A DNA stretch of 64,000 nt, taken from NCBI GenBank assembly GCA_016784605.1, contig JADHUI010000006.1, positions 2,476-66,475 of the forward strand, read 5' to 3'. Position numbers and translations under genes: made by a program. Shown here piece after piece: positions 1,396-35,118 of this stretch; the first letter of the stretch is position 1; the number at the start of each line of letters is the position of its first letter. This stretch comes from Fidelibacterota bacterium. Its GTDB lineage: Bacteria > Fidelibacterota > Marinisomatia > Marinisomatales > UBA1611. The notes below the pieces were generated by a model that was not told where the DNA came from, did no database searches, and worked only from the letters and a program-made list of their open reading frames with translations.

Positions 1396-1809
1396 ATGAT
1401 TCAAACCAAAAAACGTGAGTCCGGATTTACCATGATTGAAATTATGGTTGTGGTTGTGATTGTCGCTATTTTAGCGGCAGTAGCCGTTCCGATCTATGTT
1501 GAATATGTTAAAAGTGCCCGTGCATCAGAAGCGCGGTCTGTTATTGGAAGTATTTCTAATTCATCTGATATGTACTTTCAAACAAATGGTGAATGGCCAT
1601 CTTCGACAGAAGATTTAGAACGAACGGGTCAATTAGATTTAAAACGATCCACCAAAGCGAAATGGCAATTTGAACTTCAGCTAAGTGATGAAGGTGGACA
1701 AATAACAGCAACCAGTACAGAAGAAATGGCTGGCGGCGGCGGTCACCAGGTAATATTAAATATCGAAACAGGACGATTCACGGGCTACGGATCTAAAAAC
1801 GAAGAATAA
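1396..1809 (+). CDS. pilA: Type IV major pilin
   Basis: Class III signal peptide KKRESG|FTMIEIMVVVVIVAILAAVAVP (Gly-1, Phe+1, Glu+5); strong SD AAGGAG; first gene of the cluster; 137 aa. Confidence 0.85.
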   Translation: MIQTKKRESGFTMIEIMVVVVIVAILAAVAVPIYVEYVKSARASEARSVIGSISNSSDMYFQTNGEWPSSTEDLERTGQLDLKRSTKAKWQFELQLSDEGGQITATSTEEMAGGGGHQVILNIETGRFTGYGSKNEE

Positions 1810-1816
1810 TTTTTGT

Positions 1817-2869
1817 ATGGATATCAAAAAATTACTTAACTATTCTCTCGAAAGTGGTGCGTCTGATTTACACTTAAGTGTCGGTTCCGTTCCAATGGTT
1901 CGAATCAATGGGACAATGAAGCCGCTAAATATGGACACATTATCTCAAGAAGATATGGAATCCATATTACCTCAAGTTATGAATGAAGATCAAATTGCTT
2001 TATTCATTGAAAATAAAGAAATGGATTTATCGGCAAAGCTTGAAGGTAAAGGCAGATTCCGTGTCAACTTCTTTAACCAAATTAATGGTTTGGCAGGAGT
2101 ATTCCGTACCATTCCGGAAGTGGTTCAAGATTTCGATGATTTAGGAATTCCGCCTATACTTAGAAAATTAGCAAACATTGATCGTGGTTTGGTTCTATTG
2201 ACCGGACCAACTGGTTCTGGAAAAAGTACCACATTAGCTGCCATGATTGACCACGTTAATACAACAAGAGCTTGCCATATTATAACGATTGAAGATCCTG
2301 TGGAATATTATCACCGATCAAAAGAAAGTTTAATCAATCAACGTGAATTGGGTGCAAATACAAAAAGTTTCTCCAATGCTTTGCGGGCAGCCTTAAGGGA
2401 AGATCCAGATGTCATTTTGGTTGGGGAAATGCGTGATTTAGAAACAATTTCGTTGGCGTTAACGGCAGCTGAAACAGGTCATTTAGTTTTGTCAACCCTT
2501 CATACATCGAGTGCTGTTAAAGCGATAGATCGAATTATTGATATCTTTCCTCCAGGTCAAAAGGACCAAATACGTTCCATGCTGTCTGAAAGTTTAGAAG
2601 CCGTTATCGCTCAAAAGTTATTACCATCAAAAGATGGAAAAGGGAGAATTCCTGCTTGTGAAGTTATGATTGCCTCAACCGCTATTCGGAATTTGATAAG
2701 AGAAGATCGGATTTACCAAATTCCATCCGTGATTCAGTCAGGTGGAGTGGATGGTATGCAAGGATTAGATCAAGATTTGCAACGACTTGTGTCTCAAGGA
2801 AAAGTTGAACGCAAAGCGGCAGCAGCCATTGCAGAAAATCCAAAATTATTTCAATCGAACGTACTCTGA
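1817..2869 (+). CDS. pilT: Type IV pilus retraction ATPase
   Basis: ASDLHL, Walker A GPTGSGKST, TIEDPVE, ALREDPDVILVGEMRD and the PilT-specific AIRNLIRE motif. Confidence 0.95.
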   Translation: MDIKKLLNYSLESGASDLHLSVGSVPMVRINGTMKPLNMDTLSQEDMESILPQVMNEDQIALFIENKEMDLSAKLEGKGRFRVNFFNQINGLAGVFRTIPEVVQDFDDLGIPPILRKLANIDRGLVLLTGPTGSGKSTTLAAMIDHVNTTRACHIITIEDPVEYYHRSKESLINQRELGANTKSFSNALRAALREDPDVILVGEMRDLETISLALTAAETGHLVLSTLHTSSAVKAIDRIIDIFPPGQKDQIRSMLSESLEAVIAQKLLPSKDGKGRIPACEVMIASTAIRNLIREDRIYQIPSVIQSGGVDGMQGLDQDLQRLVSQGKVERKAAAAIAENPKLFQSNVL

Positions 2870-2889
2870 TAAATTTGAGTTAGGCAATC

Positions 2890-3360: not shown

Positions 3361-3956
3361 AAAATATATTTAAAAAATCATCTCAGGGTTTAACCTTGAT
3401 GGAATTGACTGCTGTTATGACGGTAGTGGGTGTTATTGCATTAGGGATGGGGATTGGATTTAAAAATATTCTTTACCATTATCAGCATGATGCTGTTCGT
3501 CAAGATATTCGTCATTATGGTAATATTGTTCTAAGAGAAATAAATCGAGAAATGGGGTTAGCCGAAAAAATTGAAGATGATCATTTTAATGGATTTTCTC
3601 GATTAAAAATTTATTATTATAAAGAAAATCTTATTCCCGATGTTGTTATAACCGCTTCAATGGATGATGGGGTTCTCATCAATGGAGAACTCCCTTTAGC
3701 GGGAAGTTTGAAATTGCCTAAAGATGGTCGTTTTCGTGGAGAAAATAAACGACAAATTGTGATGGGTGATTTTGATGTTGAGCGCCATGTGGATGTGCGA
3801 CAGAATTTAAGTCGGTTCTCCGAAGCTTTTTTTCATGTGAATTTGATACTAGAATTAAAATCATTTGTTTACACAGATGGCAAGAGTGTGAAAGAAGAAT
3901 TCCCATTTTATCGAACGAGTTTTATGTCAAGGTCTTATCTCAGTGAACTTCTTTAG
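3357..3956 (+). CDS. Minor pilin (PilW-like)
   Basis: KSSQG|LTLMELTAVM prepilin motif; TTGA overlap with the previous stop. Confidence 0.8.
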   Translation: MKNIFKKSSQGLTLMELTAVMTVVGVIALGMGIGFKNILYHYQHDAVRQDIRHYGNIVLREINREMGLAEKIEDDHFNGFSRLKIYYYKENLIPDVVITASMDDGVLINGELPLAGSLKLPKDGRFRGENKRQIVMGDFDVERHVDVRQNLSRFSEAFFHVNLILELKSFVYTDGKSVKEEFPFYRTSFMSRSYLSELL

Positions 3957-6174
3957 AAAACACGAATCTGGATCAGTTGCGCCTCTTGCTGTGCTCTTTA
4001 CAATGTTAAGTATGGGTTTTACGATTGCTTATTTAAGAAATAGTTCTACTGTTGCATCAATGGAACGATACCGTTTTGCAGAAGCGAAAGCGCAATACTT
4101 AGCAGAAGCGGGACTCAATGAAGCAGGGATTGTCATTTTGCCGGGAATTACATCATCTGACACAACCATGTTTCCAGAAGGTCGCGATTTTGGTGTGGAT
4201 GAACGTGGAAAAGTATTAGGTCAATATAGAAATATTCGAATGCAAACAGATTTAATTGAAAATTCTACTCGAAAGTATTATCAGGCAACGAGCGAAGGAG
4301 TTGTTAAATACAAAACACCTAGCGGAAATGAAGTGGATGTAACTCAACAAGTTTCCACAACAATGGTACCTGAAGGTTTTGAAGAATTTATGTATTTCAC
4401 CAATGAAGAATTACCCATTGGTCCGCCAAATGAAGATTTGAATGGAGGTGTTATTAATTTTGGCGGTAGCGATAAGCTTGAAGGGCGAGTGCATACAAAT
4501 GGGACCATTAACTTTAGTAATTGGGGTTGCCCAGAAATCGACCCTAATGCAGAAGTCACTATCACATATGAAGCAGTAGAAAGTGGCGGCGGAATTGGTA
4601 GTATGGGCGCATGCAGTGATGATGTATTTGAATTTGAGGACGGAGATGGTGATTCTTATACAATTTTAGACACGGTTGCTTCAATCGTTTGGCCACCTTC
4701 TACTTCAGCGCAAAATGCAAAATCCAATGCCAATAATACCATTATTTCTGATAGTAAAATTACTTTTTCGCCCTCAAAAAAAGATACAATGATTATGTCG
4801 GAAATTCATTTCGCCGACGAGGGGTATTATTTAACGCAATGGTGGTATTTAATTCCACCTGTTGGTGGACCACCTAATGAATTCTCCTATTTATGGGACG
4901 AAACGAGTGCTACGAATTTTACCATTGATGCAGGGCATTTACGCATTGGATTTGATAATACATATACTCCAGGAGTAGGATATACATTCCCTTCTTGGCT
5001 TATCGTAAATCCGCAAACTTCTGAAGGGGAAAATGTTTATTCTATCTTAAATGGTATTGCGACTGGAAACCAAATACAGATTCAAAATACTTCAGGGTCA
5101 AAAACAATGATTATTGAAGTTGGGAATCACTTAAATCCATCTGGGAATGTGGCTTATAACGTAGCAAATTTTTCATACTCTTCATCGGATGATGTTGGTT
5201 TTTCACAAGATGAAGCAGTGACTTTTATCAATTTAAGTGCTGATACAGATTTAGATCCGACGATTGAGTTTAACGCATTTGCCAATTTCCATAGCCATTC
5301 ATCAGTAGATTTCTGTCGTGTGGATGGTTTACAGCATTATGATTTAGAGTACTGGCGTGTTTCTGATATTTTTTCAAACCCAGAAGCAGTTTATACCAGT
5401 GAATATGTTGTATTTCCAAAAACATTCTTTCCTTATCCAAATAAACCACAAGTTTTATATGTGAAAGGTGGCCAAGTATTGGTCCGGGGTTCCGTCAAAG
5501 GAAAATATACAATTGTAACAGATGATTATACTGAATATAGAAGGCACGATAACCAAAGTATTGTAGATCGTGTATGGGGTAATATTTGGTTAATTGATGA
5601 TATTGTATATGAAGATTCCAACCCGGTAACGGGGGAAGTGATTCACCCTAATAATGGAGGAACGGAAAATATATTGGGCTTAATTGCCGGAGGAAATATC
5701 ATTATTGCAAATACGAAACCGAATGGCGCTCGTGCACAACAATATGGCCAAGATATTAAAATTAATGCGGCTATGATGGCCATGCATGGAGGCTTTTTAG
5801 CTCACTATTGGCAGAATACATTATCTGCATATGGAAATCCAAATACGTCAAACCCCTATAACTCCTTAGCTGATGGACAAGGACGCTATAGAAATCCGTA
5901 TTATTTAGAATCGTCTAGTCCAGGAAATACGGGGCAAAATGATATTCGCGGAACTGTATATGTATGGGGAGCAGTGGTTCAATCAAAACGTGGATACATG
6001 AAACGAAATACCGTTGGACCTTACAATGCGTCTCCCGGTGTGGGATATGATAAAGATTACCATTACGATTATAATTTAAAGGACAATCCACCACCGCATT
6101 ACCCAAATCCGGAAGATGTGAATGGAAATGTCATTTTACATATGTCATCTTATGGCATAGCAAAGAAAGAATAA
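3943..6174 (+). CDS. Large PilX-like minor pilin (743 aa)
   Basis: KHESG|SVAPLAVLF with no Glu+5 (a PilX/GspK trait); AKAQYLAEAGL; later GRVHTNG, LGLIAGGNIII, GYDKDYHYD..PPPHYP. Confidence 0.75.
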   Translation: MNFFRKHESGSVAPLAVLFTMLSMGFTIAYLRNSSTVASMERYRFAEAKAQYLAEAGLNEAGIVILPGITSSDTTMFPEGRDFGVDERGKVLGQYRNIRMQTDLIENSTRKYYQATSEGVVKYKTPSGNEVDVTQQVSTTMVPEGFEEFMYFTNEELPIGPPNEDLNGGVINFGGSDKLEGRVHTNGTINFSNWGCPEIDPNAEVTITYEAVESGGGIGSMGACSDDVFEFEDGDGDSYTILDTVASIVWPPSTSAQNAKSNANNTIISDSKITFSPSKKDTMIMSEIHFADEGYYLTQWWYLIPPVGGPPNEFSYLWDETSATNFTIDAGHLRIGFDNTYTPGVGYTFPSWLIVNPQTSEGENVYSILNGIATGNQIQIQNTSGSKTMIIEVGNHLNPSGNVAYNVANFSYSSSDDVGFSQDEAVTFINLSADTDLDPTIEFNAFANFHSHSSVDFCRVDGLQHYDLEYWRVSDIFSNPEAVYTSEYVVFPKTFFPYPNKPQVLYVKGGQVLVRGSVKGKYTIVTDDYTEYRRHDNQSIVDRVWGNIWLIDDIVYEDSNPVTGEVIHPNNGGTENILGLIAGGNIIIANTKPNGARAQQYGQDIKINAAMMAMHGGFLAHYWQNTLSAYGNPNTSNPYNSLADGQGRYRNPYYLESSSPGNTGQNDIRGTVYVWGAVVQSKRGYMKRNTVGPYNASPGVGYDKDYHYDYNLKDNPPPHYPNPEDVNGNVILHMSSYGIAKKE

Positions 6175-6180
6175 TAAAAT

Positions 6181-7233
6181 ATGATACTTGGACTCGATAT
6201 TGGGAGGCATACAATTAAATTAGTCTCCGTCGAAAAAACAAAAGAAGGATTCAAAATCCTAGATGCTGCAAGCCGATTGGTACCAGATGCGAATAGAGCG
6301 TATGATCCCGAAAAGATTGATAAACCAATGTGGATCATGGCCATAAAGGAATTAATGCGGTTACAGGGAATTAATCCCAAGCGAGTAAAAAATATTGTGA
6401 CCGGTATTGGCGGTGTTCATGCCAGTGTCAAGCAAATCACAACCTTAGATATGCCTACTGAAGAATTGCATTCATCTATGACACTTGAAGCGAGAAAACA
6501 TATACCTATGGATGGAACAGACGCCGTAATTGATTTTGAGATTTTCGGCCCAAATGCAAGAGAAGTCGATAAAATTGATGTCGGTCTTGTGGCCTGTACA
6601 AAAGGTATTCTAAATCATCATTTAGATTTATTAAAAGAATGTGGGTTTAAACCAGGAATTGTGGATGTTGAACCGATTGCAATGACCAATACTTTTTCCC
6701 ACGCAAAGGATATGCCTGAAGACGGGTTGGTGGTTTTATTAGATATAGGCGCAGTCTCTTCTGGGCTTGTCGTTTGGGGACATCAACAACAATACTTTAC
6801 GAGAGATATTCAAATTGGGGGGCATGATTTTGTTAAAGCTGTGATGGATAAAAAAGATTTATCCTATATCGATGCTCAAGATTTGCTTCAAAAAGAAGGA
6901 CTTTCTGCTATTTTGAGTCAATCTACATCCGATCATGAAAATGCTATTGGACTAGCTGAAAGAACAGTTTTTGATAATTTGGTAGAAGATATTAGACGTT
7001 CTCTCCGGTTCTATGCTAAAACAACAGGACAAAGTTTTTTCTTGAAAATTTTATTAAGTGGAGGTGTGGCAGAAACGCCTGGATTAGTTGATTATATTCA
7101 ATCGAAACTTAATGTAGATACAGCCATTATTAATCCTCTCGAATCTCTTGCGGGTATTGAAGAATTAGAGGTCTCCAATCCTTCTCAATATGCGATTGCA
7201 TTGGGTCTAGCCATCAGGGGAGGATTATCATGA
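6181..7233 (+). CDS. pilM: Type IV pilus assembly protein PilM
   Basis: Actin-like motifs GLDIGRHTIK, LLDIGA, GG, IRRSLRFY, LLSGG, ALGLAIRG. Confidence 0.93.
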   Translation: MILGLDIGRHTIKLVSVEKTKEGFKILDAASRLVPDANRAYDPEKIDKPMWIMAIKELMRLQGINPKRVKNIVTGIGGVHASVKQITTLDMPTEELHSSMTLEARKHIPMDGTDAVIDFEIFGPNAREVDKIDVGLVACTKGILNHHLDLLKECGFKPGIVDVEPIAMTNTFSHAKDMPEDGLVVLLDIGAVSSGLVVWGHQQQYFTRDIQIGGHDFVKAVMDKKDLSYIDAQDLLQKEGLSAILSQSTSDHENAIGLAERTVFDNLVEDIRRSLRFYAKTTGQSFFLKILLSGGVAETPGLVDYIQSKLNVDTAIINPLESLAGIEELEVSNPSQYAIALGLAIRGGLS

Positions 7234-7835
7234 AAAAATATATTCTCATAAACCTAAATCAATCTGAAAGTAAAGAAACGCGTCAAGAGAGATTCAATGA
7301 GCAAATACGATGGGTTCTTTTTTCTGTGTTTCTGATTTTGTTTCTAGGAGCGAATATTCGTATATGGATGATCTCGAGTGGATATGACAGAATTATTATT
7401 CAAAAAGAGAATGAAATAGAAAAAGTTAAAATGGAAATCAAAGCATTAGAAGCGAAAGGGAAAAATTTATCAAAGGATGATATTCTATCGTTTGCGGAAT
7501 TAGAACAAACACGATACTTGTGGGCGCGAAATATGGAAATGCTTGGGGAAATGACCCCTAATGATATGGCAATAACAGGGTTGAAATTCAAACATGATAA
7601 ATTGACCATCACTGGAATCGCGCCTGTATATGACGATAGAAAAGATTTTGAAATTATTAATAGTTACGTTCAAAAATTGAATAATAATTCTGAATTTGCG
7701 AATCATTTTCAACGCATTAAATATGTAGGCCATAATCGATTGAATTTTAGAGGACAAGATATTGTGAAATTTGAAGTATTAGCACCGGCAAAATACTCTT
7801 CTGGTAAGAAAAAGATTAAACGGAAGGGACGATAA
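7230..7835 (+). CDS. pilN: PilN-like protein
   Basis: N-terminal INL motif, one TM helix, coiled coil, ferredoxin-like C-terminal part; directly after pilM. Confidence 0.8.
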   Translation: MKKYILINLNQSESKETRQERFNEQIRWVLFSVFLILFLGANIRIWMISSGYDRIIIQKENEIEKVKMEIKALEAKGKNLSKDDILSFAELEQTRYLWARNMEMLGEMTPNDMAITGLKFKHDKLTITGIAPVYDDRKDFEIINSYVQKLNNNSEFANHFQRIKYVGHNRLNFRGQDIVKFEVLAPAKYSSGKKKIKRKGR

Positions 7836-8410
7836 TGGCTGAAAAAAGAAACTTAATTTTATTGTCTGTTGTTGTTTTACTAACTGTGGCTTTTTGGATG
7901 GGTTCATCTATGCTTATCGGTGAAAAGCCATTAAGCATTAAAATATTAGAACAGGAACAAGAAGAATTAAATGAGAATTTAATTAGTGCACAAATATTGG
8001 CGAGTAAACTTGATCGTGTTTATACATTATTTCAAGAGAATTTGGCTTTATCATTAAAAGATTCATTGGCTGAAGATGCTTCAATGCCTTTTCTTCGAGA
8101 TCTTACCGATAAATTGGATAAGCTCAATATTGAAGTCTTGAGCCTAAAGCCCCGAAAGCGAATTAAAGAAAAAGGATATTACAGATCCCCATATGAATTA
8201 ACGGTTAATTGTAGCTTTGATAAATTTGGTGAATTCCTAACGGAATTAGAACGTTCACCGCGTCTTATTAATATAGATGAATTTATCGTTAAAAATGGAA
8301 TTGAAAGAGTGAAGTCTAAAATGCAAGAAGAAGATTTAATTGACCAAGTTTTTGAAGTGGGCCTTTCTACAATTACCCTTGTTAAAGGAAAAGGTAGGGT
8401 TAAATCATGA
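7835..8410 (+). CDS. pilO: PilO-like protein
   Basis: TM helix plus coiled coil, F..FL..LE..PRLINI pattern; after pilN. Confidence 0.85.
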   Translation: MAEKRNLILLSVVVLLTVAFWMGSSMLIGEKPLSIKILEQEQEELNENLISAQILASKLDRVYTLFQENLALSLKDSLAEDASMPFLRDLTDKLDKLNIEVLSLKPRKRIKEKGYYRSPYELTVNCSFDKFGEFLTELERSPRLINIDEFIVKNGIERVKSKMQEEDLIDQVFEVGLSTITLVKGKGRVKS

Positions 8411-9384
8411 CAAATGAAGGACGTACACGTACTGTTTGGATGCTTGTCTCTTGGTTAAGTGTCATCTTATTGATCATTATTGGATTTAAACTATACCCAA
8501 TGAATAAAAAATGGCAAAAGATTCAAGATAGATCGTCCCAAGTAAAATTTGGTACGGATGAAGATTTAGAGAGTGTTATTACTTTTTTAGAGACTCGATT
8601 AAAGGATAGAGGCAAATTTCAATTTCAATTAGATAATACGCCTATGCGAATTACCAATGTTCTTTTCCTAACAGATGGTTCCGGTCGTCGTTTGAGACGA
8701 GATAGGTCGGCAGTGCGCGTATCTATGGTGTATCAACGCGAAAACCATTTTCAAGCTCAAATATCATATCGTGGTAAAACCGTTACAGCAAAATCTGGAG
8801 ATCATTTAATGGAATTGGGAGAAATCTTGATGATAGACCAATCAAGAGTTATTATTAAAAATGAAGGAAAAATAATGGCTTACCCCGCACCAGGATCCGA
8901 TTTAGAAAAACCAATAGAGTTGCAAAATTATGTTTTACCTAAAACACCCGAAAAAAAGATTGGGGTGCCTAAGACTGCCTCATTGAAAGAGTTGAAGACT
9001 TCAAAGGGTCAGCTTGTGGAAATTTTACCTGAAATAAATATTGATAATAGTGAGACAGATTTAAAGCCAGGCTTAAAAAAAGCTCCAGCCCTAATCAAAT
9101 TAAGTAATAAAAGTTCTAAAAATAGCCGCATTGAAACACCCGCATTCGAGCGCGATCCAAATTGGAAAAAAACGATTCAATTATCGCTAGGGACAATTCA
9201 ATTTGAATTGAGTGGTAAACCTGCAGGAAATACCTTTGAAGCGCTTAAAGAAAAAGCGATAACAAACGGTTTGAAGGATGAAATATTTAATAAACAATTT
9301 GAAGAAATTGGGTTTTTTGAATTCCAAAAATATTTGGAAAATAATCAGGAAACAATTTTTGCGCTAATTGAAAAAAATAATTAA
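8407..9384 (+). CDS. PilP/GspC-like protein with N-terminal TM and long C-terminal extension
   Basis: Lies between pilO and the secretin; AQISYRGKTVTAKSGD..GEILMIDQSRVII resembles the PilP/GspC HR domain. Confidence 0.55.
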   Translation: MTNEGRTRTVWMLVSWLSVILLIIIGFKLYPMNKKWQKIQDRSSQVKFGTDEDLESVITFLETRLKDRGKFQFQLDNTPMRITNVLFLTDGSGRRLRRDRSAVRVSMVYQRENHFQAQISYRGKTVTAKSGDHLMELGEILMIDQSRVIIKNEGKIMAYPAPGSDLEKPIELQNYVLPKTPEKKIGVPKTASLKELKTSKGQLVEILPEINIDNSETDLKPGLKKAPALIKLSNKSSKNSRIETPAFERDPNWKKTIQLSLGTIQFELSGKPAGNTFEALKEKAITNGLKDEIFNKQFEEIGFFEFQKYLENNQETIFALIEKNN

Positions 9385-9405
9385 AAGATATTACAAGGAA
9401 AAATA

Positions 9406-10794: not shown

Positions 10795-10795
10795 C

Positions 10796-13717: not shown

Positions 13718-13721
13718 AATT

Positions 13722-17340: not shown

Positions 17341-17354
17341 TTAGAGAGGAATTA

Positions 17355-20945: not shown

Positions 20946-20965
20946 CGCTATAAAATATTTGGCTA

Positions 20966-22147: not shown

Positions 22148-22583
22148 AGTTTCCATTGGTTTAGGCATTGTACTCAGTTTAATCTTATCTGAATCTTTAG
22201 GGGTTACAGCCGGAGGCATTATTGTTCCAGGATATATTTCTCTTTATTTACATGAACCGTTACAAGTATTAATCACGTTTGCGGTTGCTGCGATTGTATA
22301 TGGAATTATACATTTATTAAGTAAAGTGATGTTTCTGTATGGGAAAAGACGATTGGTTTTAGCTTTGATTCTAGGCTTTTTTCTGGGATATATTTCTCGA
22401 CATTTTATTTATTCCCCTTTTGATGAATTGTCATTTGCTGTGATTGGGAATATTATTCCTGGACTTATTGCAAATTGGATGGATCGCCAAGGAGTTGTGC
22501 GGACATTATCGGTTGTAATTGTAACAGCTGTCCTCGTGAAATTGCTTGTCATGATGTTTTTTGGGGGACAACTCTTTGTTTGA
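22140..22583 (+). CDS. pgsC: Poly-gamma-glutamate biosynthesis membrane protein PgsC/CapC
   Basis: GIVLSL..SE..GVTAGGIIVPGY, LYGKRR, IGNIIPGLIANWMDRQG. Confidence 0.95.
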   Translation: MVEVSIGLGIVLSLILSESLGVTAGGIIVPGYISLYLHEPLQVLITFAVAAIVYGIIHLLSKVMFLYGKRRLVLALILGFFLGYISRHFIYSPFDELSFAVIGNIIPGLIANWMDRQGVVRTLSVVIVTAVLVKLLVMMFFGGQLFV

Positions 22584-26627: not shown

Positions 26628-29600
26628 AAAGACGAAAGAAAATGATAAAAAATATATTACTATTATCCCTTTATTTTTGGGGCACCTTATTTGGACAGAA
26701 TTTACTCGATGAAGCTGGTATTCCAATTCGGCAAGGGATTCACATCGAATGGTTTAAAACTGTGAGTCCTGGAACAGATGGAACAGCCATATTTGTTTGG
26801 TCAGATAACCGGTTTGGTCCACGGAATATTTTTGCTCAAAAAGTGAGTGGAGAAGGAGAATTACTTTGGGGAGAAGGTGGAGCCGTTGTAACTGATTTAC
26901 CAGGAAGACAAGAAGACCCAGTCTCTATATCAGACGGAAACGGTGGTGTTTATATTGCATGGATTGATTATCGTTTTGACGCTGAAGGGGATGTCTTTTA
27001 TCAACATGTAGATAGCAATGGGTATCGTTTATTAGAAGATAATGGTATTCCGTTAGCGTTGATTCCAGGGAGACAAATATCCATTAATATGTGTACCGAT
27101 AGTTTGGGAGGTGTTTTTGTAACGTGGCAAGATAAACGTAATCAAATTAATGAAGATATTTATGGGACGCATATTTCTGCAAATCATGAAGTTATAGAAC
27201 CAAGTGTGGGTGTTCCTATTATTATAGCTGGTGGAACTCAAGCCGAAAAAAGTATTGAATATGCTGGAAATCATGAAGCGTATATCGTTTGGTCAGATGC
27301 AAGAAATGGTGGAAATATGGATATCTATGGTCAAAGATTAGATATGAATATGAATTTACTGATGGCGACTGAAGGATTCCCCGTTGCCGTCACATCTTCA
27401 CTAGAAACGCGCCCGCGGGTGACATATATGAGCAATAATCAGTCATTTGTCACTTGGAAATCGGGCGACGAAAGTTCAGAAATTTTATATCAAATAATGG
27501 ATGAAAGTGGGTTCATCCTAACGGAGCCGGCTAAAGTTTCACAATTTGATGCAATTCAAAAATCTCCCCGAGTAAAAAGAAATGCGGATGGAGAAGTTTT
27601 CTTAAGTTGGACCGATTTAAGATATGATACAATTGATGGTCATATTTTCTTTCAAAAAATCGGATTAGATGGTTCCGTGTTGTGGGGTGATGGTGTTCAA
27701 TTAGATGACTTTGGTGAAAAACACTTAAATGGTCGATTTGCACCAGATGAAAATGGTGGATTATACGTCGTTTGGGAGCGAGGAAGTAATCCTGATACAG
27801 ATATTCCGCTTCAATATATTAATGAAGATGGGGATATGGTTTTATCAGACTTCTTTGTGACCAATGCTGATGGAAATCAAGATGCACCTAATGTGATTTT
27901 TTCTAATACGGATGGGCTCTTTACTATTTATGGGGATGCATCATCAGGAAGCGTCAATTTGTTTGTTAACAGCTATTTAAATGGCAGTAATCAATGGGCA
28001 TCCGATATTTTAGGTGCGACGGGAATGGACGGCGATGTGAAGTATATACAAGGGTTTAATTCAAATATGGATGAAATCATTCTTTTGTGGGAAGATAATC
28101 GACACGCACAAAAAATATATGCAAATCGGGCTGTCAATGAATCTTTAGAAGTAACGAATGGAAATCAAATTACCTTTTCAGATGACGATGCTTCAGACGA
28201 TGATTTATCTTATCCGGTATATTATTTTGATGGTGTCCATGTGTATGTTGCTACATTTGATGGGTCAGATACACCGAAATCAATGCGGATTAATAAATTA
28301 ACAACCGATTTTGAAAATGTATGGGGCGATTCAGGTATAGCTGTTACAAGTATAGATGACCAACGTAATGGGATGCTCTTGGGGTTTGAAGAAAGTATTG
28401 GTTGCTTTTGGAGCGAATCAACCGCAATCAGCTTAGATATCCTATTCCAAAAGTATGATTCAGACGGGAATGCATTATTAGAAGAAGGTGGTAAAGTTTT
28501 ATTGGATGGATGGAATGATGAATATGTTTTAAATGTATTCAATACGCCTGATAATAATATAATGATTGTTTGGCTCGATAATGCTTGGGGAAGTACAACC
28601 ATTAAAATAAAGAAAATTGATTTAAATGGAAATTTAGCTGTTGGATGGTCTTCCAATGGAATAAATCTGAGTGAAACGGTTTACGATATTCAAGATATAT
28701 CCGCTGAAGTCATTTCGGATGATGATGGCATTTTTGTCGTTTGGCGACAAACAACCACAACTGAAACAGAAATATTTGGACAAATTATCGATTGGGATGG
28801 AAATATTATGTGGGAAAACGGCGGTCTGTCTATTTCAAATGCAGAACATGATCAGGTTAATCCATCTATGGATGTAGATCCTATTGGAAAAACAGCTTTT
28901 ATTGCTTGGGAAGATTTACGTAATGGGAGTGATTATAATGTATTTGGACAAGAAATAGATCTAGTCAGTGGAGAATTAAATGGAGAAGCCGTTCAATTTT
29001 CTGCAGACACAACACAACAACTGAAGCCGTATGTTAAAAATATATTGCAGGACCAATATCTCATTTTATGGGAGGATGGACGTGGATTTTGGAATAATGA
29101 TCCTTTAATGACTGGTGGGGCTGACATTTATGGCAGTGGATATGCTACATGGAATGGAATGACGTCAGAAATAGATGGTTTTCCTGTTGTGGCAAACTAT
29201 CACGAACAGGGACAAGTTGAAGTCACAAATTACAATCATGAATCGCAATATTTACTCCATTGGATTGATTTACGAAGCTCAGGTAAAGAAGATATTTATA
29301 ATTATTACGGTCGAATTATTGAAGTGGCAGATTTACTAGACATTAAAGATGTGGATGAATATTGGGCCGATGATTTTACTCTTCATTCTGCATATCCGAA
29401 TCCATTCAATGGAGCCATTCAGTTTGAATTTAATATGATGGGAACTCAACCAGTGGAATTTGCCATTTATGATTTAAGTGGACGGAAAGTAAATGATCGC
29501 TTGATTCTGCCCAACTCAGCTGGGAAATATCGAATTTCGTGGAATGGCAAAGATATGAATGGTGCGAATTTATCGAGTGGAATATATTTTTATCAATTCA

Positions 29601-29647
29601 AAGTTAATGAAGTAATAATAAAAGATAAAATAACATATCTAAAGTAA
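26624..29647 (+). CDS. Secreted WxDxR-repeat (probable multi-propeller) protein with T9SS type-A-like CTD
   Basis: Start ATG 26624 (ATGA overlap) or 26642; many W.D.R...DIY.Q repeats; C-terminal YPNPFN..IYDLSGR..WNG..SSGIYF..KITYLK. Confidence 0.7.
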   Translation: MKRRKKMIKNILLLSLYFWGTLFGQNLLDEAGIPIRQGIHIEWFKTVSPGTDGTAIFVWSDNRFGPRNIFAQKVSGEGELLWGEGGAVVTDLPGRQEDPVSISDGNGGVYIAWIDYRFDAEGDVFYQHVDSNGYRLLEDNGIPLALIPGRQISINMCTDSLGGVFVTWQDKRNQINEDIYGTHISANHEVIEPSVGVPIIIAGGTQAEKSIEYAGNHEAYIVWSDARNGGNMDIYGQRLDMNMNLLMATEGFPVAVTSSLETRPRVTYMSNNQSFVTWKSGDESSEILYQIMDESGFILTEPAKVSQFDAIQKSPRVKRNADGEVFLSWTDLRYDTIDGHIFFQKIGLDGSVLWGDGVQLDDFGEKHLNGRFAPDENGGLYVVWERGSNPDTDIPLQYINEDGDMVLSDFFVTNADGNQDAPNVIFSNTDGLFTIYGDASSGSVNLFVNSYLNGSNQWASDILGATGMDGDVKYIQGFNSNMDEIILLWEDNRHAQKIYANRAVNESLEVTNGNQITFSDDDASDDDLSYPVYYFDGVHVYVATFDGSDTPKSMRINKLTTDFENVWGDSGIAVTSIDDQRNGMLLGFEESIGCFWSESTAISLDILFQKYDSDGNALLEEGGKVLLDGWNDEYVLNVFNTPDNNIMIVWLDNAWGSTTIKIKKIDLNGNLAVGWSSNGINLSETVYDIQDISAEVISDDDGIFVVWRQTTTTETEIFGQIIDWDGNIMWENGGLSISNAEHDQVNPSMDVDPIGKTAFIAWEDLRNGSDYNVFGQEIDLVSGELNGEAVQFSADTTQQLKPYVKNILQDQYLILWEDGRGFWNNDPLMTGGADIYGSGYATWNGMTSEIDGFPVVANYHEQGQVEVTNYNHESQYLLHWIDLRSSGKEDIYNYYGRIIEVADLLDIKDVDEYWADDFTLHSAYPNPFNGAIQFEFNMMGTQPVEFAIYDLSGRKVNDRLILPNSAGKYRISWNGKDMNGANLSSGIYFYQFKVNEVIIKDKITYLK

Positions 29648-29650
29648 AAC

Positions 29651-31972
29651 ATGAATAGAATATTTGCTCAATACATATTGGGTTTCTTGTGTATCTCAAT
29701 TGGATTAAGTCAAGAGCTCGATCCTCGATACCATTCATTAGACGAAATAAATGGGTATCTTGAATCTCTTAATCAGGATCCTGAAATTGATTCTTTTTTT
29801 CGAGTGGACACAATCGGGTATTCGTCCCAAGAAAGTTTGCCTATTTTAGCGGTCATTATTTCCAATAATGTAAATGAGAGGGAAGATGAAGCTCGTGTTT
29901 TATTTATTGGACAAGTTCATGCAGAAGAAGTGATTGGTGTTGAAGCTGTTTTACAATTAATTCATGATTTAACCTATCCTGAGCCATCGCAACAAAATCA
30001 TGTTAATATTTTAAGAGCCAATCTCGAAATTTGGATTATCCCAACAGCCAACCCGGAAGGTTTAAATGTCGTCCATGATGGATTAGATATGAGTTTTCGA
30101 AAAAATAAAAGAGACTTTTCTCCAGGCGGTCCCTTTGCAAATGGGATATTTGATTATGATCCTTCCGTAGGAAATGATATAGATGGTGTGGACCTTAATC
30201 GTAATTTTAATTTTAATTGGGCATTTGGAGACACATTTTTAGAACCCGACGCCAGCGATTATGCTTCTCACTATGATTATTACAAAGGAGAAGAACCCTT
30301 TTCTGAAGGGGAAGCGGTGGCCATTCGTGACTTAGCGATTCGGGAGAAATTTCTTTTTTCGATTGTATGGCATAGTTCACGGTCGGGTCGTTTATCAGAA
30401 AAAGTGTTTACATCGTGGTTGTGGGAAGGAACAAAACCTTCGCCGGATCTGGTTTATGTAAAAACATTGGCAGATAACTTCGCTTCAGAAATCGAGACTG
30501 AAGATGGCTCTGGCTCCTATTTATCTGTCTATAGTGGATCCCGTAATGGAAAGTTACATGACTGGTTTTACCGTGAAACGGGTTGCATTCAATACCTCAT
30601 TGAATGTGGAACATCGAACCTTCAACCTGACAGTACTTTATTAGAAAATACGATTGAGCGAATAAATCCAGCCATGTGGTACCTCATGGATAGATCCATT
30701 GGCTATTACATGGATGCATCTCAATTGACTGGGATTGTTACTGATGCATCCACAGGCACTCCTATTCAAGGTGCTATTATCAAAATACTAGAACACACTG
30801 GATCTGTACTAAAACCACGTAAAACGGATGAATTTGGACGATATAGACGTATTTTAGATATTGGGTCTTATACATTATCAGTTCGAGCGAAAGGATATGA
30901 TTCTCAGACAATCAATGTGGTTGTAAATAATGCAGCTATTACACATCAAAATATTGGATTAAATCCAGCAGCCATGCATACACTTAATTTGACCCTTATT
31001 GATGAAGATGAAATGCCTTTGATATATGTAGGTTATTTGACATCAGAATTTGGTGTTGATACATTGACACTCGGCGAAGGCCTGAATACACTATATTTAC
31101 CATCCGCATCTTATGATTTATTGATTCCCATCGGCGGGTTAATCATACCATGGAAACGATCATTTGATTTGGACAGAGATTTAGGTTTTACGGCACATTT
31201 TATAAATGGGGATCTACAATTATTAAGTACATCTTGGCCATGGGAGAATGCAGAAGGTCCGTGGGTGGCAGGCGATGTTATTCTTAAAACTCAGGAAGAT
31301 CTTTATTATGAAAATGGAGATACAGCATTAACCGAACAATGGATGGAATCAGAGTTGGTGGACGTGTCGGGGAAAAATCGACTTGTTTTAAAAGTGGATC
31401 ATCGATATGAAACGGAATGGGATAATGATCCTATCTCTATCTTAATATTAGATAATAATGATTCTCTTCTTGCACATAAATCGTGGACAGGTATGGCTTG
31501 GGAGAGTTTTCAAACAAATTATCTTACAGCTATACACGAAAGTGGGTTTGATAGTGTTAAAATAAAATTAAGTTTTCTACCAGATCAATCTGTGAATTAT
31601 CATGGATGGGAGTTAGAAGGATTAACTTTGTTTTCGGTTATGGACGAATATCTTGGGACAACAATATCACAAGGGGGTATTACGCCAAAAATCCCCTTAA
31701 CCTTAAATGGTATTTTTCCAAATCCATCCCGAGGACAATTTCAATTAGATATTGGTTATTGGCCCGGCGGAAAAGGTGGAATGGCTGTTTATAATCTTTT
31801 AGGGCAAGAAATAGCTCAATATCCAATAAGTCAATTGTCTGCTGGACGACATCTCATCCGATTTGACTTGGAGCAATCGGTGAATAAACTTTTAAGTTCT
31901 GGCGTCTATTTTATCGTTTTAAATACAGATAGGGAAATGGTCACACAAAAATGCGTATTTATGAAAAATTAA
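29651..31972 (+). CDS. M14 zinc carboxypeptidase with regulatory-like domain and CTD
   Basis: GQVHAEE, NPEG, RKN, GVDLNRN, PFSEGE, WHS; GIVTDASTGTPIQGA regulatory-like domain; FPNP..YNLLGQ..SGVYF CTD. Confidence 0.85.
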   Translation: MNRIFAQYILGFLCISIGLSQELDPRYHSLDEINGYLESLNQDPEIDSFFRVDTIGYSSQESLPILAVIISNNVNEREDEARVLFIGQVHAEEVIGVEAVLQLIHDLTYPEPSQQNHVNILRANLEIWIIPTANPEGLNVVHDGLDMSFRKNKRDFSPGGPFANGIFDYDPSVGNDIDGVDLNRNFNFNWAFGDTFLEPDASDYASHYDYYKGEEPFSEGEAVAIRDLAIREKFLFSIVWHSSRSGRLSEKVFTSWLWEGTKPSPDLVYVKTLADNFASEIETEDGSGSYLSVYSGSRNGKLHDWFYRETGCIQYLIECGTSNLQPDSTLLENTIERINPAMWYLMDRSIGYYMDASQLTGIVTDASTGTPIQGAIIKILEHTGSVLKPRKTDEFGRYRRILDIGSYTLSVRAKGYDSQTINVVVNNAAITHQNIGLNPAAMHTLNLTLIDEDEMPLIYVGYLTSEFGVDTLTLGEGLNTLYLPSASYDLLIPIGGLIIPWKRSFDLDRDLGFTAHFINGDLQLLSTSWPWENAEGPWVAGDVILKTQEDLYYENGDTALTEQWMESELVDVSGKNRLVLKVDHRYETEWDNDPISILILDNNDSLLAHKSWTGMAWESFQTNYLTAIHESGFDSVKIKLSFLPDQSVNYHGWELEGLTLFSVMDEYLGTTISQGGITPKIPLTLNGIFPNPSRGQFQLDIGYWPGGKGGMAVYNLLGQEIAQYPISQLSAGRHLIRFDLEQSVNKLLSSGVYFIVLNTDREMVTQKCVFMKN

Positions 31973-34900
31973 TTTTAGTCGCCTTGATGGTGAGTTTCAG
32001 TTTTGCCAATGGTTTATCTTTTCGAGGAAAAACAACTGAAAACCTCCTTCAAGAAACGATCCCATTAGCGTTTCAACATTTTGTTGAAACAGAGTTGGAT
32101 TTACCGCATTCGATGAATCTGAATCGGGGGAGTTATCTCATTATAGTCCCAGATGGTCTAGTCAATTATTTGGATCAATTTGTATCTTTTAAAAAATCGC
32201 AAGGGTTTGATGTGATCGTTTCTCTTCTTTCTGAAGCAGGGAGTAGTTCGGATAATATAAAGACCTTTATCGGGGCTACTTTGGCAGAAGACCCGATGTT
32301 AGAATATGTTCTCCTCATTGGAGATGTAGATGGATTTGCAGCTCTACCGTCCTTTTATTATGGACCTGCAAATGATGTTTCTGATCAAAAATTCACACAT
32401 TTGCTTGGAGATGATATTGTCCCGGATGTCTTTATTGGAAGAATGTCCGTTGATAATTTGACGGACTTAATTGTTATTCTTTCAAAAACAATGAAATATG
32501 CTCGAGATCCATTAGCCTTCAATCAAGATTGGTTGAATCGAGGATTGGTTGTAGCTGGAAATTATAGTAACACATATCCGATTCCCATCACACCCAAGTG
32601 GACTTCTTATTGGTTGCGAGATGAATTGCTTGATTTTGGTTATTCAAATGTGGATACTGTTTTTTATCCTCCAGTCCAACAAGGCGCTCCCCAAATTATT
32701 TCTGCAATAAATCAAGGAGCGGGCATTGTGAATTATCGTGGATGGGGAGATGCCAATGGTTGGCATTATCCTGAATTCCATGTGAGTGATGTGAATGATT
32801 TAAATAATGGATGGCTTACACCTGTATTTTTGAGTTATGTGTGCAATTCCAACGATTTCGCCAATAATGTAGATCCGTGCCTTTCAGAAGCAGTCACGCG
32901 AGCAGGAACTCCATCCGTGCCGAAAGGGGGCGTCGCTTTTGTCGGCCCATCCGATCTCCATACAAGTACAAAATACAATAATATCATTAATGCCTATATG
33001 TATGACGCTATGCTAAACCATCAAGTGGTAGAATTAGCCCCAGCCATGTTAGCGGGACAATTGGGGTTACAAAAAGAATTTCCAGAGCAAGATGATGCAG
33101 GGGAAGCGCAAGAGTTTTATACCCATGTTTATAATATTTTAGGCGATCCGTCTTTACAAGTCTATACAGGAACACCAAATTTATTTTTATTTGATATGGA
33201 TCCAGTCTATGAAAATGATGGCCTTTTAGATATTCGACTCACAAATGAAAATGAGCAAATGGTTGCCAATGCTGTTATAAGTGTTATGGCAAATGGAGAA
33301 ATCGTCGCAAAAGGATTAACCGATAATACCGGACGGTTTATAGCCAGTGTGGATGTCCAAAATAGTGTAGAAATAGACATTTATGCAAATAAGAATGGTT
33401 TTATTCAAGGCCATTCCGTTGCAAGTGTTGAAAATGCAACATCGGATATTCATTTAAGTCAATTAACTGTTTTATCTGAAGATAATGGCGAAAATGTAGC
33501 ATTAGGTGAATCCTTTGAACTTTCAATCACGCTAACAAATAATTCCAATAATGTGGCAGGTGGTTTTATAGGATCGTTATCGTTTAATGCTGGAGTAGAG
33601 CCTCAACTTATCGAAGTAAATATTCCTGAAATAAATTCAGGAGAATCAACTATTCTCGTTATATCTGATTTGGTGATTTATGAACCTTTGCACTCTAACG
33701 GTGCCACCGCTCGACTTACGGATAATAATGGAATAAAAATGGGTGATCTTGTTATTCCTATAATTATGCCCATTTTTGATATTTCATTTGGAAATACTGA
33801 CGTTACGCCGAATTCATTATTTACACCTGTTTTATCCATCCAAAGTTATACGAATGCAGATTATATTGATATTTGGGTTGATATCTCCTGTCTGAATGAT
33901 TCCATTGATTGTGTTTTGGGACCGAATGATGATTCCCAAGATAACATAACATCCATATCAGCGTTTGAAGAACAATTGTTTACAAATTACGCCGATATTG
34001 GTTTGGGGGATATTTCTTACGGAAGTGATGTCACTTTCTTGGTGGAATTTCTTAAAGATAATCGTCTATTATTTAGTCAAGAAGTTTCGCTACACATTAA
34101 ACCCCAAACTGAAAATCTTCCTGTTGCGCCATCCAATTATGGTTACTGGGCTTTTGATGATACTGATGCCGGTTTTGATCAAACACCTACTTTTGATTGG
34201 GTTGAGTTAGACCCATCATTTGGGGGAACAAACGGAACTGAATATCTTTTAGATGATGATGATCATGTCGATGTTTCTTTGCCATTTACATTCCAATATC
34301 ATGGTCAAGAGTATGATGGACTAACCATTAGTTCAAATGGATGGGCTTCTTTTGAATCCTGTTATATAGATTATTTCTGGAATTATACCATTCCCATGTT
34401 TATGGGGCCAAAAGCATTATTAGCTCCTTTTTGGGATGATTTAGAAGTCGTGGATGATAATTGGATTCGCGTCTATACGTGGCATGATGAAATCAATGGC
34501 CGATTTATTGTGGAATGGTCGCGCGTATTAAACGGTTATGACGAAGTGACAGAAGAAACATTTGAAATTATCCTTTATACGCAAGAAGCAATGTCAACTG
34601 AATCTGGCAATGGTGTAATTGATTTTCAATATTTAGAAATTGATGATGTAGATGTAACAAAAAATTATGCCACAGTGGGTATCGAATCTCCAGCAAAAAA
34701 TGATGGAATACAGTATGCGTTTAATCATGGATTCGCATCAGGAGCCGCTCCACTTGCGAATGAGCGAGTGATTCGATTTACAACAAATGCTCCAGATAAT
34801 TATGTGGCACCATTGGCTGTTGGCCCTGAACCCATTCCTACAGGATTTCATCTTTCATCTGCTTTTCCAAATCCGTTTAATCCAACGACGCATTTAAATA

Positions 34901-35118
34901 TTCATCTTCCAGTAAATAGTTTTGTATCTGTTATGATTTATGATATAATGGGCCGAGAAGTAACAACACTTATATCAAAATGGATGAATGGAGGAAATCA
35001 TTTAATCAAATGGAATGGCAAAAACCATTTGGGTGAATCTGTAGCTTCTGGAACTTATTTCATCGTGGCTAAACAGGGAAATAATACTCAAATTCAAAAA
35101 GGATTGTTTTTAAAATAA
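31951..35118 (+). CDS. Second gingipain-like C25 family protein with CTD
   Basis: YLIIVP, KKSQGF, YVLLIGD, DVFIGRMS, NYRGWG, YVCNSN, ILGDP; C-terminal FPNPFNPTT..IYDIMGREV..WNG..ASGTYF. Confidence 0.85.
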   Translation: MRIYEKLILVALMVSFSFANGLSFRGKTTENLLQETIPLAFQHFVETELDLPHSMNLNRGSYLIIVPDGLVNYLDQFVSFKKSQGFDVIVSLLSEAGSSSDNIKTFIGATLAEDPMLEYVLLIGDVDGFAALPSFYYGPANDVSDQKFTHLLGDDIVPDVFIGRMSVDNLTDLIVILSKTMKYARDPLAFNQDWLNRGLVVAGNYSNTYPIPITPKWTSYWLRDELLDFGYSNVDTVFYPPVQQGAPQIISAINQGAGIVNYRGWGDANGWHYPEFHVSDVNDLNNGWLTPVFLSYVCNSNDFANNVDPCLSEAVTRAGTPSVPKGGVAFVGPSDLHTSTKYNNIINAYMYDAMLNHQVVELAPAMLAGQLGLQKEFPEQDDAGEAQEFYTHVYNILGDPSLQVYTGTPNLFLFDMDPVYENDGLLDIRLTNENEQMVANAVISVMANGEIVAKGLTDNTGRFIASVDVQNSVEIDIYANKNGFIQGHSVASVENATSDIHLSQLTVLSEDNGENVALGESFELSITLTNNSNNVAGGFIGSLSFNAGVEPQLIEVNIPEINSGESTILVISDLVIYEPLHSNGATARLTDNNGIKMGDLVIPIIMPIFDISFGNTDVTPNSLFTPVLSIQSYTNADYIDIWVDISCLNDSIDCVLGPNDDSQDNITSISAFEEQLFTNYADIGLGDISYGSDVTFLVEFLKDNRLLFSQEVSLHIKPQTENLPVAPSNYGYWAFDDTDAGFDQTPTFDWVELDPSFGGTNGTEYLLDDDDHVDVSLPFTFQYHGQEYDGLTISSNGWASFESCYIDYFWNYTIPMFMGPKALLAPFWDDLEVVDDNWIRVYTWHDEINGRFIVEWSRVLNGYDEVTEETFEIILYTQEAMSTESGNGVIDFQYLEIDDVDVTKNYATVGIESPAKNDGIQYAFNHGFASGAAPLANERVIRFTTNAPDNYVAPLAVGPEPIPTGFHLSSAFPNPFNPTTHLNIHLPVNSFVSVMIYDIMGREVTTLISKWMNGGNHLIKWNGKNHLGESVASGTYFIVAKQGNNTQIQKGLFLK

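Follow-up and report, generated by a model that had tools for sequence, protein, structure and literature searches.

What does it mean that, in a member of the Marinimicrobia, a cluster of type IVa pilus (T4aP) genes runs on one strand straight into genes for the synthesis of poly-gamma-glutamate (PGA)? The locus lies in a window of 64,000 nucleotides (G000:C15:2476-66475) of a metagenome-assembled genome (MAG) of this phylum (Neomarinimicrobiota; 2.17 Mb, 89% complete). Within the window, 24 open reading frames (ORFs) encode a predicted complete T4aP cluster and then PgsB, PgsC, a TIGR04332 protein and seven accessory proteins: two members of peptidase family C25 (C25a and C25b) that lack the catalytic His, a basic secreted protein, a probable outer-membrane beta-barrel, an LVIVD-repeat lipoprotein, a 1020-aa protein with the C-terminal domain (CTD) of type IX secretion system (T9SS) cargo, and an M14 zinc carboxypeptidase (Table 1). 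Proteins were assigned by Pfam and NCBIfam profile searches, with bit scores compared to the cut-offs of the models; genomes, contigs, loci, families and genera are denoted by G, C, L, f and g numbers. Our answer, to which we give a probability of about 55%, is that two conserved modules, a T4aP system and a diderm PGA system, stand end to end and are jointly regulated as a surface or attachment programme rather than working as a single machine. The pil-PGA neighbourhood is real and conserved, and co-regulation of its two parts is plausible. Mechanical dependence between pili and PGA module is unlikely. Because the PGA module stands without pili in some lineages, neither a single machine nor export through the secretin is likely.

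Conservation was examined in the regions around pgsB (20 kb on each side) of 31 relatives of the same order with PgsB above the family cut-off, which were compared with 30 proteins of the window. Twenty-one relatives keep the order pil...pilC-(pilD)-C25a-pgsBC-TIGR04332-(basic protein)-barrel-LVIVD-CTD protein-M14-C25b, and five regions are cut by contig ends. The other five (G025, G027, G028, G029, and G033) have no pil genes upstream, where about 13-15 kb of sequence was seen in four and 1.3 kb in G029, yet keep C25a-pgsBC-TIGR04332-basic protein-barrel-CTD protein; M14 and C25b lie alongside on the other strand in two of them (G025 and G028). We also collected loci around relatives of the TIGR04332 protein (the best 80 of 560, nearly all labelled Marinimicrobia-like), which come from the same genome collection as the pgsB survey, so that the two sets of counts are not independent. 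Among these 80, pilB/pilC lie upstream on the same strand in 47 and in an inverted pil block in two, while 31 have no pil genes; at least 12 of these 31 begin inside the module, and at least eight have the full 10 kb upstream without pil. In the more distant loci L137-L153, a His-less C25 gene is found inside the module, after the LVIVD gene. The constant core is thus the PGA module with its own C25 gene, and the deeply conserved unit comprises C25a, pgsBC, TIGR04332, the basic protein, the probable barrel, the CTD protein, M14, and C25b.

The position of the pilus genes relative to this core was measured as the distance from pilC to pgsB in the 126 genomes with both genes listed. In 56 genomes (families f1, f7, f9, f11, and f14), pilC is found 3-4 kb upstream of pgsB on the same strand, in three the distance upstream is 8 kb, and in 10 (f17-f20) it is 17-28 kb with pilC on the opposite strand, so that 69 in all have it 3-28 kb upstream on the same contig; in the other 57, the two genes are on different, often short, contigs. 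The preliminary description of this DNA had held that pil and pgs blocks unlinked in most relatives would speak against a joint locus, and this was not what the genomes gave. Three genomes of other orders (G046, G349, and G258) have the pil block inverted as a whole, and pilA and C25a diverge over a spacer of 290-530 nt. The pil block is co-directional, as in the window, in G237 of another order and in G301 (f16) of the window's own order. The 33-60-kb regions of these five genomes gave no match to any of 17 flank-control proteins taken from the window. The comparison of synteny across the phylum, which had been proposed as a check, thus found the adjacency kept in other orders without the window's flanking genes nearby, and the adjacency outlasts the surrounding synteny there.

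PgsB and PilC were then counted in 401 genomes of the phylum, with PgsB taken at E <=1e-60 and the PilC orthologue at E <=1e-100 in the same set. Both are present in 143 genomes, PgsB alone in 30, PilC alone in 12, and neither in 216; PgsB exceeds the family cut-off in 172 of the 401. The co-occurrence of pgs genes with the pil cluster that the preliminary description had suggested examining is therefore seen across the phylum. The tallies by family run in parallel for PgsB and PilC (37/43 and 37/43 in f1, 0/37 and 0/37 in f12, 0/13 and 0/13 in f8, 0/16 and 0/16 in f21), and within f9, genera g31, g32, and g36 have both and g23 has neither. The 12 genomes with PilC alone are scattered over families that otherwise have both, and they may simply be incomplete.

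The array itself is compact. As had been claimed from the sequence (24 same-strand genes with gaps of at most about 21 nt), the ORF list gives 24 ORFs on one strand at 1396-35118 (33.7 kb) with no gap above 21 nt. The widest gaps are 21 nt (9384/9406), 20 nt (2869/2890 and 20945/20966), and 14 nt (17340/17355), the other junctions overlap or are separated by at most 7 nt, and the GC content is even over the whole block (0.35-0.40). The early caveat that the housekeeping genes are also tightly packed holds in so far as the rest of the window is one-stranded too, but gaps of 60-310 nt interrupt that remainder every 2-6 genes, so that a gap-poor run of 24 genes is unusual even in this window. Terminator-like sites in the array scan numbered 13 against 12.3 (s.d. 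3.4) in shuffles, which agrees with the earlier statement that there is no obvious terminator inside the array; promoter-like sites numbered 18 against 12.0 (s.d. 3.0), which we treat as the level of the shuffles. The mechanically assigned TTG starts at 10736, 22561, 23639, and 26585 produce overlaps of 23-89 nt with the preceding gene, and later ATG starts followed by signal-peptide-like sequence suit these four ORFs better (e.g., 23705 for the basic protein). With genes packed so tightly, the simplest reading is that the 24 genes, probably together with the glutaredoxin gene behind them, would form one long transcription unit from a promoter ahead of pilA. The 145 nt upstream of pilA are the only long non-coding stretch before the array in the window. 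The only runs found to contain the sequence, three from one study, are labelled metatranscriptomic and are probably DNA; they contain, at small shares, identical contigs of 151-343 nt that fall on pilB, pilC, C25a, pgsB, pgsC/TIGR04332, and the basic-protein, barrel, and LVIVD genes.

A rare 15-nt element, TTACANNTTGWTACA, was found near both modules in relatives of other orders (G046:C1:87885-95366; G349:C17:17746-17808; G258:C35:34169-34183; L148, L149, L155, L157, and L171). In 174 loci (2.55 Mb), it occurs in eight exact copies, all just upstream of pilA, a C25a copy, or pgsB, and in the divergent pilA/C25a spacers, it is present once per orientation. Copies with one mismatch lie at like places in L155, L157, and L171, and in G237 in the pilD/C25a interval and ahead of the third C25a copy. 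Genome-wide, exact copies number two in G349 (both at the locus), one in G258 (at the locus), eight in G046 (three at the locus), and none in G237, and a reversed-pattern control gave 0, 0, 0, and 1 in G349, G258, G046, and G237; at one mismatch, the counts are 29 against 11 for the control in G046 and 17 against 10 in G349. The element resembles an extended -10 box. Given this resemblance, and its presence ahead of unrelated genes as well, it may represent a consensus of strong promoters rather than a dedicated operator or regulator site. Separately, a perfect CRP/FNR-type palindrome, TGTGA-N6-TCACA, is located upstream of pilA in four genomes of f1 (L029 in G010, L031 in G013, L042 in G005, and L050 in G024). 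The window's genus has a half-site only, at about 1258-1275.

Judged by its gene content, the first module (1396-17340) is a complete retractile T4aP cluster and not a type II secretion system (T2SS). It has a prepilin and its peptidase, PilB, PilC, PilMNO, and a secretin, and a dedicated PilT; such a dedicated retraction ATPase separates T4aP from T2SS. PilB scored 612.9 bits with the equivalog model TIGR02538, under its cut-off of 675.65. Its MshEN-type motif is above the NCBIfam domain cut-off, and for this reason, pilus extension may respond to cyclic di-GMP (c-di-GMP). Family searches of the module did not identify PilP. A 325-aa membrane-anchored protein stands at the PilP position, with an N-terminal part conserved in relatives, other orders included, and could from this place be PilP-like. 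Two further proteins also keep their place in relatives of this and other orders: a 743-aa protein, whose position suggests a large minor pilin or tip protein, and the 993-aa Big_1 protein between pilQ and pilB. pilD is absent from this place in G030 and G037. The PilC match carries one in-frame TAA in G025, G040, G200, and G218 (genus g16) and in G150, G243, G246, G330, and G332, which could reflect decay, read-through, or splitting of the gene. At G000:C23:63257-64459 lies a second T2SSF paralogue that shares about 30% identity with PilC and is present in most relatives; it may belong to type II secretion or to a second pilus system.

The synthase core of the second module is that of known PGA systems. 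pgsB and pgsC are adjacent with an overlap of 8 nt, and both proteins pass the equivalog cut-offs; by membership of these families, PgsB and PgsC would polymerise glutamate at the inner membrane. The third gene occupies the place of the third Bacillus subunit, PgsA. It had been labelled 'pgsW', a name for which the literature search found only unrelated uses, and the label is withdrawn here, since the protein belongs to TIGR04332. A profile search of the PDB returned chance-level hits only for it. No match to PgsA/CapA (PGA_cap, PF09587) was found at the locus or anywhere in the 89% complete genome, and neither CapD nor PgdS is present at the locus; a gamma-glutamyltranspeptidase homologue is encoded on another contig.

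The genes downstream of this core encode predicted envelope and surface proteins. The signal-peptide-like N-terminus of the basic protein is kept in 25 orthologues; in Pfam, it has a weak Ig-like match only (MtxA_IG-like in 11 of 25 members at E <=1), and the profile search of the PDB found no relative. The barrel candidate has a conserved aromatic C-terminus and, by a crude count, 11 amphipathic period-2 segments. None of its 26 orthologues matches a Pfam model and no PDB match was found; feature-based look-alikes in the Atlas are named beta-barrel, BBP2_2, and SlipAM and serve as leads only. In the 1020-aa protein, previously called a CTD propeller, the CTD alone was recognised, with no propeller repeat or other domain detected. 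The M14 protein has its best PDB matches to carboxypeptidase D domain II and carboxypeptidase T, and in alignment to the latter, the active-site equivalents are intact (HxxE as VHAEE, NRN, His in WHSS, Glu in IEC); no PghP-family match was reported in its Pfam scan. Type A CTDs are present in the 1020-aa protein, the M14 protein, and C25b, and the genome encodes a T9SS (SprA, 592 bits; PorU).

Both C25 proteins match the C25 domain model, and a propeptide is matched in C25a only. The motif NYTGHG is replaced by NYRG[YFW] in 28/28 orthologues of C25a and by NYRGWG in 16/16 of C25b, in each case with the Cys kept, and the NYRG[Y/F/W] replacement is found in the C25 genes of more distant PGA modules as well. 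Alignment to RgpB (E 7e-23 and 1.4e-22) places the nucleophile Cys at its position, with the catalytic His replaced by Tyr in C25a and Trp in C25b. At the equivalents of RgpB residues that we take to be Glu152 and Asp163, in agreement with a count along chain 1cvr_A, C25a has a gap and Val, respectively, and C25b has Tyr and Pro. As all three equivalents are lost in both proteins, ordinary gingipain-type peptidase activity is unlikely. The preliminary description had compared these proteins to the sortase PorU, and the comparison fails: the true PorU of the genome (G000:C11:18675-21899, 613.8 bits) is on another contig and keeps NYIGHG, whereas C25b reaches 45.4 bits with the PorU model against a cut-off of 420, and the C25 part of C25a gives no match. 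From their sequences, the two proteins of the block are neither PorU nor ordinary gingipains, and the three are the only C25 genes of the genome. The earlier picture of a matrix decorated with hydrolases stands for M14 at most, whose catalytic residues are intact, and not for the C25 proteins. A homology search with the catalytic region of C25a returned close marine orthologues only among the best 120 listed, and in public annotation, these are 'C25 family cysteine peptidase' or hypothetical. In family f17, C25a has tandem paralogues in 3-4 copies ahead of pgsB (G046:C1:88087-99932 and G237:C2:17107-24626), and the copies in G046 have terminator-like T-runs and the 15-nt element between them.

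In the window's family, C25a has a C-terminal dockerin; the forms in f2, f4, and f5 have 1760-1825 aa and end in a T9SS CTD, with no dockerin. With a dockerin end instead of a T9SS CTD, its route across the outer membrane in the window's family is unexplained. A correlation of dockerin-ended C25a with pil linkage and of the CTD-ended form with none was considered and ruled out by G301, which has the CTD type with pil linked, and by L137-L153, which have the dockerin type with no pil within reach. Four cohesin matches in the genome are above the Pfam cut-off (G000:C14:72725-73009, C3:2868-3182, C14:473-808, and C27:22408-22731), two of them in open frames with a T9SS CTD match as well, and the proteins carrying these domains are possible partners of the C25a dockerin. 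The genes of SprA and of a PorV-like protein (below cut-off) are at G000:C14:175795-181755 and G000:C16:30113-31462. The CTD end of the PorU model gave at least 49 additional matches, indicating heavy reliance of the genome on T9SS cargo; in the window, the block is flanked by three more CTD proteins, at 6-1250 and at 36280-37986 on the minus strand.

Table 1 Predicted features of the pil-PGA array and its downstream end (window positions)
Feature	Position	Strand	Evidence
Major pilin PilA	1396..1809	+	N_methyl 34.8 bits; GspG and PilA-type matches weaker, below cut-offs
Retraction ATPase PilT	1817..2869	+	TIGR01420 478.5 bits vs cut-off 319.1 (PilT/PilU subfamily); T2SSE 169.6 bits
Two minor pilins	2890-3360, 3357-3956	+	N_methyl/TIGR02532 prepilin motif; second at or just under Pfam cut-off
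743-aa pilus-cluster protein	3943..6174	+	No Pfam/NCBIfam match
PilM, PilN, PilO	6181..8410	+	PilM_2 146.8, PilN 24.3, PilO 37.8 bits
325-aa membrane-anchored protein, PilP position	8407..9384	+	No family matched
Secretin PilQ	9406..10794	+	Secretin 128.4, Secretin_N 37.9, STN 32.9 bits
993-aa acidic Big_1 repeat protein, lipobox-like N-terminus	10736..13717	+	Big_1 64 bits, five stretches; pI 4.1
Extension ATPase PilB, MshEN c-di-GMP-binding N-terminus	13722..15443	+	T2SSE 450.5, MshEN 57.5 bits; NF053729 52.4 vs 38
Platform protein PilC	15443..16690	+	T2SSF 194.9 bits, two stretches
Prepilin peptidase PilD, A24 domain only	16690..17340	+	Peptidase_A24 39 bits
C25a: propeptide, C25 domain, Ig-like domain, NIDO, C-terminal dockerin	17355..20945	+	Peptidase_C25 169.9, Propeptide_C25 87, Dockerin_1 30.1 bits
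PgsB, PGA synthase ligase subunit	20966..22147	+	TIGR04012 407.1 bits vs cut-off 222.7
PgsC	22140..22583	+	TIGR04011 118.7 bits vs 96.45; Caps_synth_CapC 115.7 bits
TIGR04332 'poly-gamma-glutamate system protein', hydrophobic stretches near both ends	22561..23727	+	302.8 bits vs cut-off 100
Basic secreted protein, pI 9.8, 294-316 aa	23705..24589	+	ORF from 23639 by machine; likely start ATG 23705
Probable outer-membrane beta-barrel, 339 aa	24590..25609	+	Weak EpsL and TonB-receptor matches
LVIVD-repeat lipoprotein	25596..26627	+	LVIVD 22.3 bits vs 20.2; lipobox-like LLLSGC in N-terminus
1020-aa T9SS cargo	26585..29647	+	Por_Secre_tail 37.1 bits
M14 zinc carboxypeptidase, 773 aa, CarboxypepD_reg domain and T9SS CTD	29651..31972	+	Peptidase_M14 115.7 bits
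C25b: second His-less C25 protein with T9SS CTD	31951..35118	+	Peptidase_C25 191.3 bits
Glutaredoxin (CPYC), 78 aa, 25th same-strand gene, 49 nt after C25b	35168..35404	+	Pfam Glutaredoxin 75.5 bits
Terminator-like hairpin and T-run, candidate array end	35457..35475	+	Consensus scan

We propose the following scheme for the locus. The first module would supply a complete retractile T4aP system, and the second (17355-35118) would be a diderm version of a PGA system. PgsB and PgsC would make PGA at the inner membrane with the TIGR04332 protein in the place of PgsA, and the basic periplasmic protein and the small outer-membrane barrel would carry the polyanion over the envelope. At the surface, M14 and the two C25-like proteins may hold or trim PGA, the surface proteins having reached the outside by means of a T9SS CTD or a dockerin, and pili and polyanionic coat would be expressed as one surface programme. 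A bolder extension of this scheme, speculative and in our judgement improbable, is that the His-less C25 proteins form a new functional branch of the gingipain/PorU family that would bind, cap, or covalently anchor PGA on the diderm surface in a sortase- or receptor-like manner, and that the pili would use this coat as Myxococcus pili use exopolysaccharide, the whole forming one attachment organ for sinking particles.

A number of observations weigh against a joint programme. In families f4 and f5, PgsB is present in 6/6 genomes and a PilC orthologue in 0/6; the whole PGA module was found in both genomes examined (G027 and G028), with neither PilC nor PilQ, and in four of the five searched f4/f5 genomes, which are 88-97% complete, genes of the T2SSF family are missing altogether. 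In G025 and G033, the two modules lie on separate long contigs, and no sampled genome of f2, f6, f10, f24, or f29 has pilC and pgsB on one contig. The pil-PGA link is not obligatory. The counts ignore kinship, and the co-occurrence can be inflated by relatedness, MAG incompleteness, and lifestyle, since small genomes of free-living cells lack both systems. Regarding the 15-nt element, the pattern was defined from five of its eight exact sites, in the window it is at chance (12 matches at <=2 mismatches against 9.35 expected), and other copies in G046 precede a large secreted protein and a citrate-synthase-like gene. No contig extended 31 letters to each side of 17340/17355 or 20945/20966, in source runs flagged as probably DNA. 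The roles given to the basic protein, the barrel, and the C25 proteins draw on position and weak similarity. Finally, within the window's own order synteny extends to the flanking genes, so that the adjacency there could be inertia.

This last point leads to a reading of the neighbourhood without shared function, in which independent surface systems are adjacent by ancestry in slowly rearranging, streamlined genomes and are lost together in reduced, particle-free lineages. The genome is densely one-stranded throughout, the families without both systems include genomes of about 1 Mb such as those of f12, and a single deletion removes both modules where they are linked. Moreover, there are the five families without any sampled genome having both on one contig, and in one of them, f24, 15 genomes have both, four PgsB only, three PilC only, and four neither, so that the association is not marked. 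We regard this reading as possible, though somewhat unlikely, because the adjacency survives both the loss of flank synteny across orders and the inversion at the junction, because both systems are kept in other families in which they were never found on one contig (4/4 and 4/4 in f2, 4/4 and 4/4 in f10, 3/4 and 3/4 in f29), and because at least five genomes have a rare shared element, TTACANNTTGWTACA, ahead of both pilA and the PGA module. The pilus machine could alternatively be the export route, with the PilQ secretin and a pseudopilus pushing PGA or the dockerin-ended C25a out in the manner of a T2SS. The dockerin end of C25a in the window's family, the 14-nt gap between pilD and C25a, and the lack of any family-level case of a pilus without the PGA module (the PilC-only genomes being scattered) would fit such a route. 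It is nevertheless very improbable: PilT and PilMNO are marks of a retractile T4aP, the PGA module has its own candidate barrel and occurs in genomes without any T2SSF gene, and the correlation between dockerin end and pil linkage fails as described above. It is also conceivable that C25a, C25b, M14, and the CTD protein are not capsule parts but secreted peptidases for foraging on protein or peptides that merely share an operon with pgsBC. All carry secretion signals, three of them with T9SS CTDs like the many other such matches of the genome, the active site of M14 is complete, and the peptidase names in public records of C25a orthologues point the same way. We consider this improbable as well, since the catalytic His is missing in every orthologue of both C25 proteins examined and in distant forms, since the two proteins also lack the Glu152/Asp163 equivalents, since C25a and C25b are the sole C25 genes in the genome besides PorU, and since a His-less C25 gene stays within the PGA module in every arrangement seen. 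Two conserved modules under joint regulation thus remain our preferred account of the locus.

Compared with the Bacillus systems PgsBCA(E) and CapBCADE, the locus has the same PgsB and PgsC equivalogs, and the two genes are adjacent and overlapping here as in the described Bacillus operon (PMC5751247). It differs in lacking PgsA/CapA, with TIGR04332 as the third gene, and in having neither CapD nor PgdS; the host is diderm, and the PGA genes are accompanied by a candidate outer-membrane barrel, by T9SS cargo and M14, and by the two C25 proteins without the catalytic His. Fusobacterium nucleatum is reportedly the first Gram-negative producer of polyglutamate and would share with this bacterium PGA in a diderm cell, which is predicted here from genes alone. 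In Myxococcus xanthus, T4aP work with exopolysaccharide, and there is a single large cluster of pil genes, which is not known to make up one array with the eps locus. The retractile T4aP and the single large pil cluster are thus common to both, with pilus function tied to a secreted surface polymer in Myxococcus, whereas the polymer predicted here is a polyamide, not a polysaccharide, and an interaction of pili with the coat is hypothetical. The C25 proteins resemble the gingipains RgpB and Kgp and PorU in the C25 fold as judged from sequence, C25a in its gingipain-type propeptide and Ig-like domain and C25b in its T9SS CTD; they differ in the change of His to Tyr, Phe, or Trp and in having no equivalents of Glu152 and Asp163, with Cys only kept. 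The barrel candidate is comparable to BBP2_2/EpsL and Slam (SlipAM) barrels in length, aromatic C-terminus, look-alikes, and a weak EpsL match, and differs in that 0/26 orthologues match any Pfam model and there is no PDB relative. In Slam-substrate pairs, the gene beside the barrel encodes a lipoprotein, and the gene after the candidate barrel here likewise encodes a lipoprotein (LVIVD). The zinc carboxypeptidase adjoining PGA genes recalls PghP and the M14 metallocarboxypeptidases; the M14 protein of the window has 773 aa with CarboxypepD_reg and a CTD, and its action on gamma-linked glutamate is hypothetical. PghP, a PGA hydrolase, is described as structurally related to carboxypeptidase A (PMC4497714).

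The literature search found no work joining PGA with Marinimicrobia, no use of TIGR04332 or its product name, and, among the papers listed, no description of a pilus-PGA or C25-PGA locus, in agreement with the preliminary description, which knew of none combining T4aP with PGA. In the main text of the papers on Marinimicrobia that were examined, we found no mention of pili, polyglutamate, capsule, or gingipain, although supplements may list such genes. A PGA system with new accessories, beside a T4aP cluster, is therefore apparently undescribed; its synthase core is the known PgsBC. For the predicted genes downstream of this core, no described counterpart was found, and as a fixed accessory set, they appear to have none in the Bacillus systems. 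The Marinimicrobia (SAR406) rank with the most abundant bacteria of the dark ocean that are uncultured. That PgsB with a fixed accessory set usually adjoins a complete retractile pilus cluster in this phylum hints at a shared attachment programme. If true, the scheme would provide a diderm route to export and hold a polyamide capsule, a new use for a C25 fold lacking the catalytic His, and, for particle colonisation and carbon export, a connection of pili with a polyanionic coat that can be tested. If the C25 proteins do anchor the coat, the result would be an attachment organ helping an abundant dark-ocean phylum to stay on sinking particles.

A candidate downstream end of the array lies behind C25b. 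The stretch after this last C25 gene had been taken for an empty gap of 336 nt; it holds the gene of a 78-aa glutaredoxin and then a hairpin. Glutaredoxin directly follows C25b in 15 loci of the same order and was not found in the regions of other orders that were compared. Since folding of 35100-35500 gives a stability no greater than that of shuffles (z 0.55), the hairpin is weak evidence for a terminator. The next ORF begins with a GTG at 35455 and overlaps the hairpin, for which reason this start is probably wrong.

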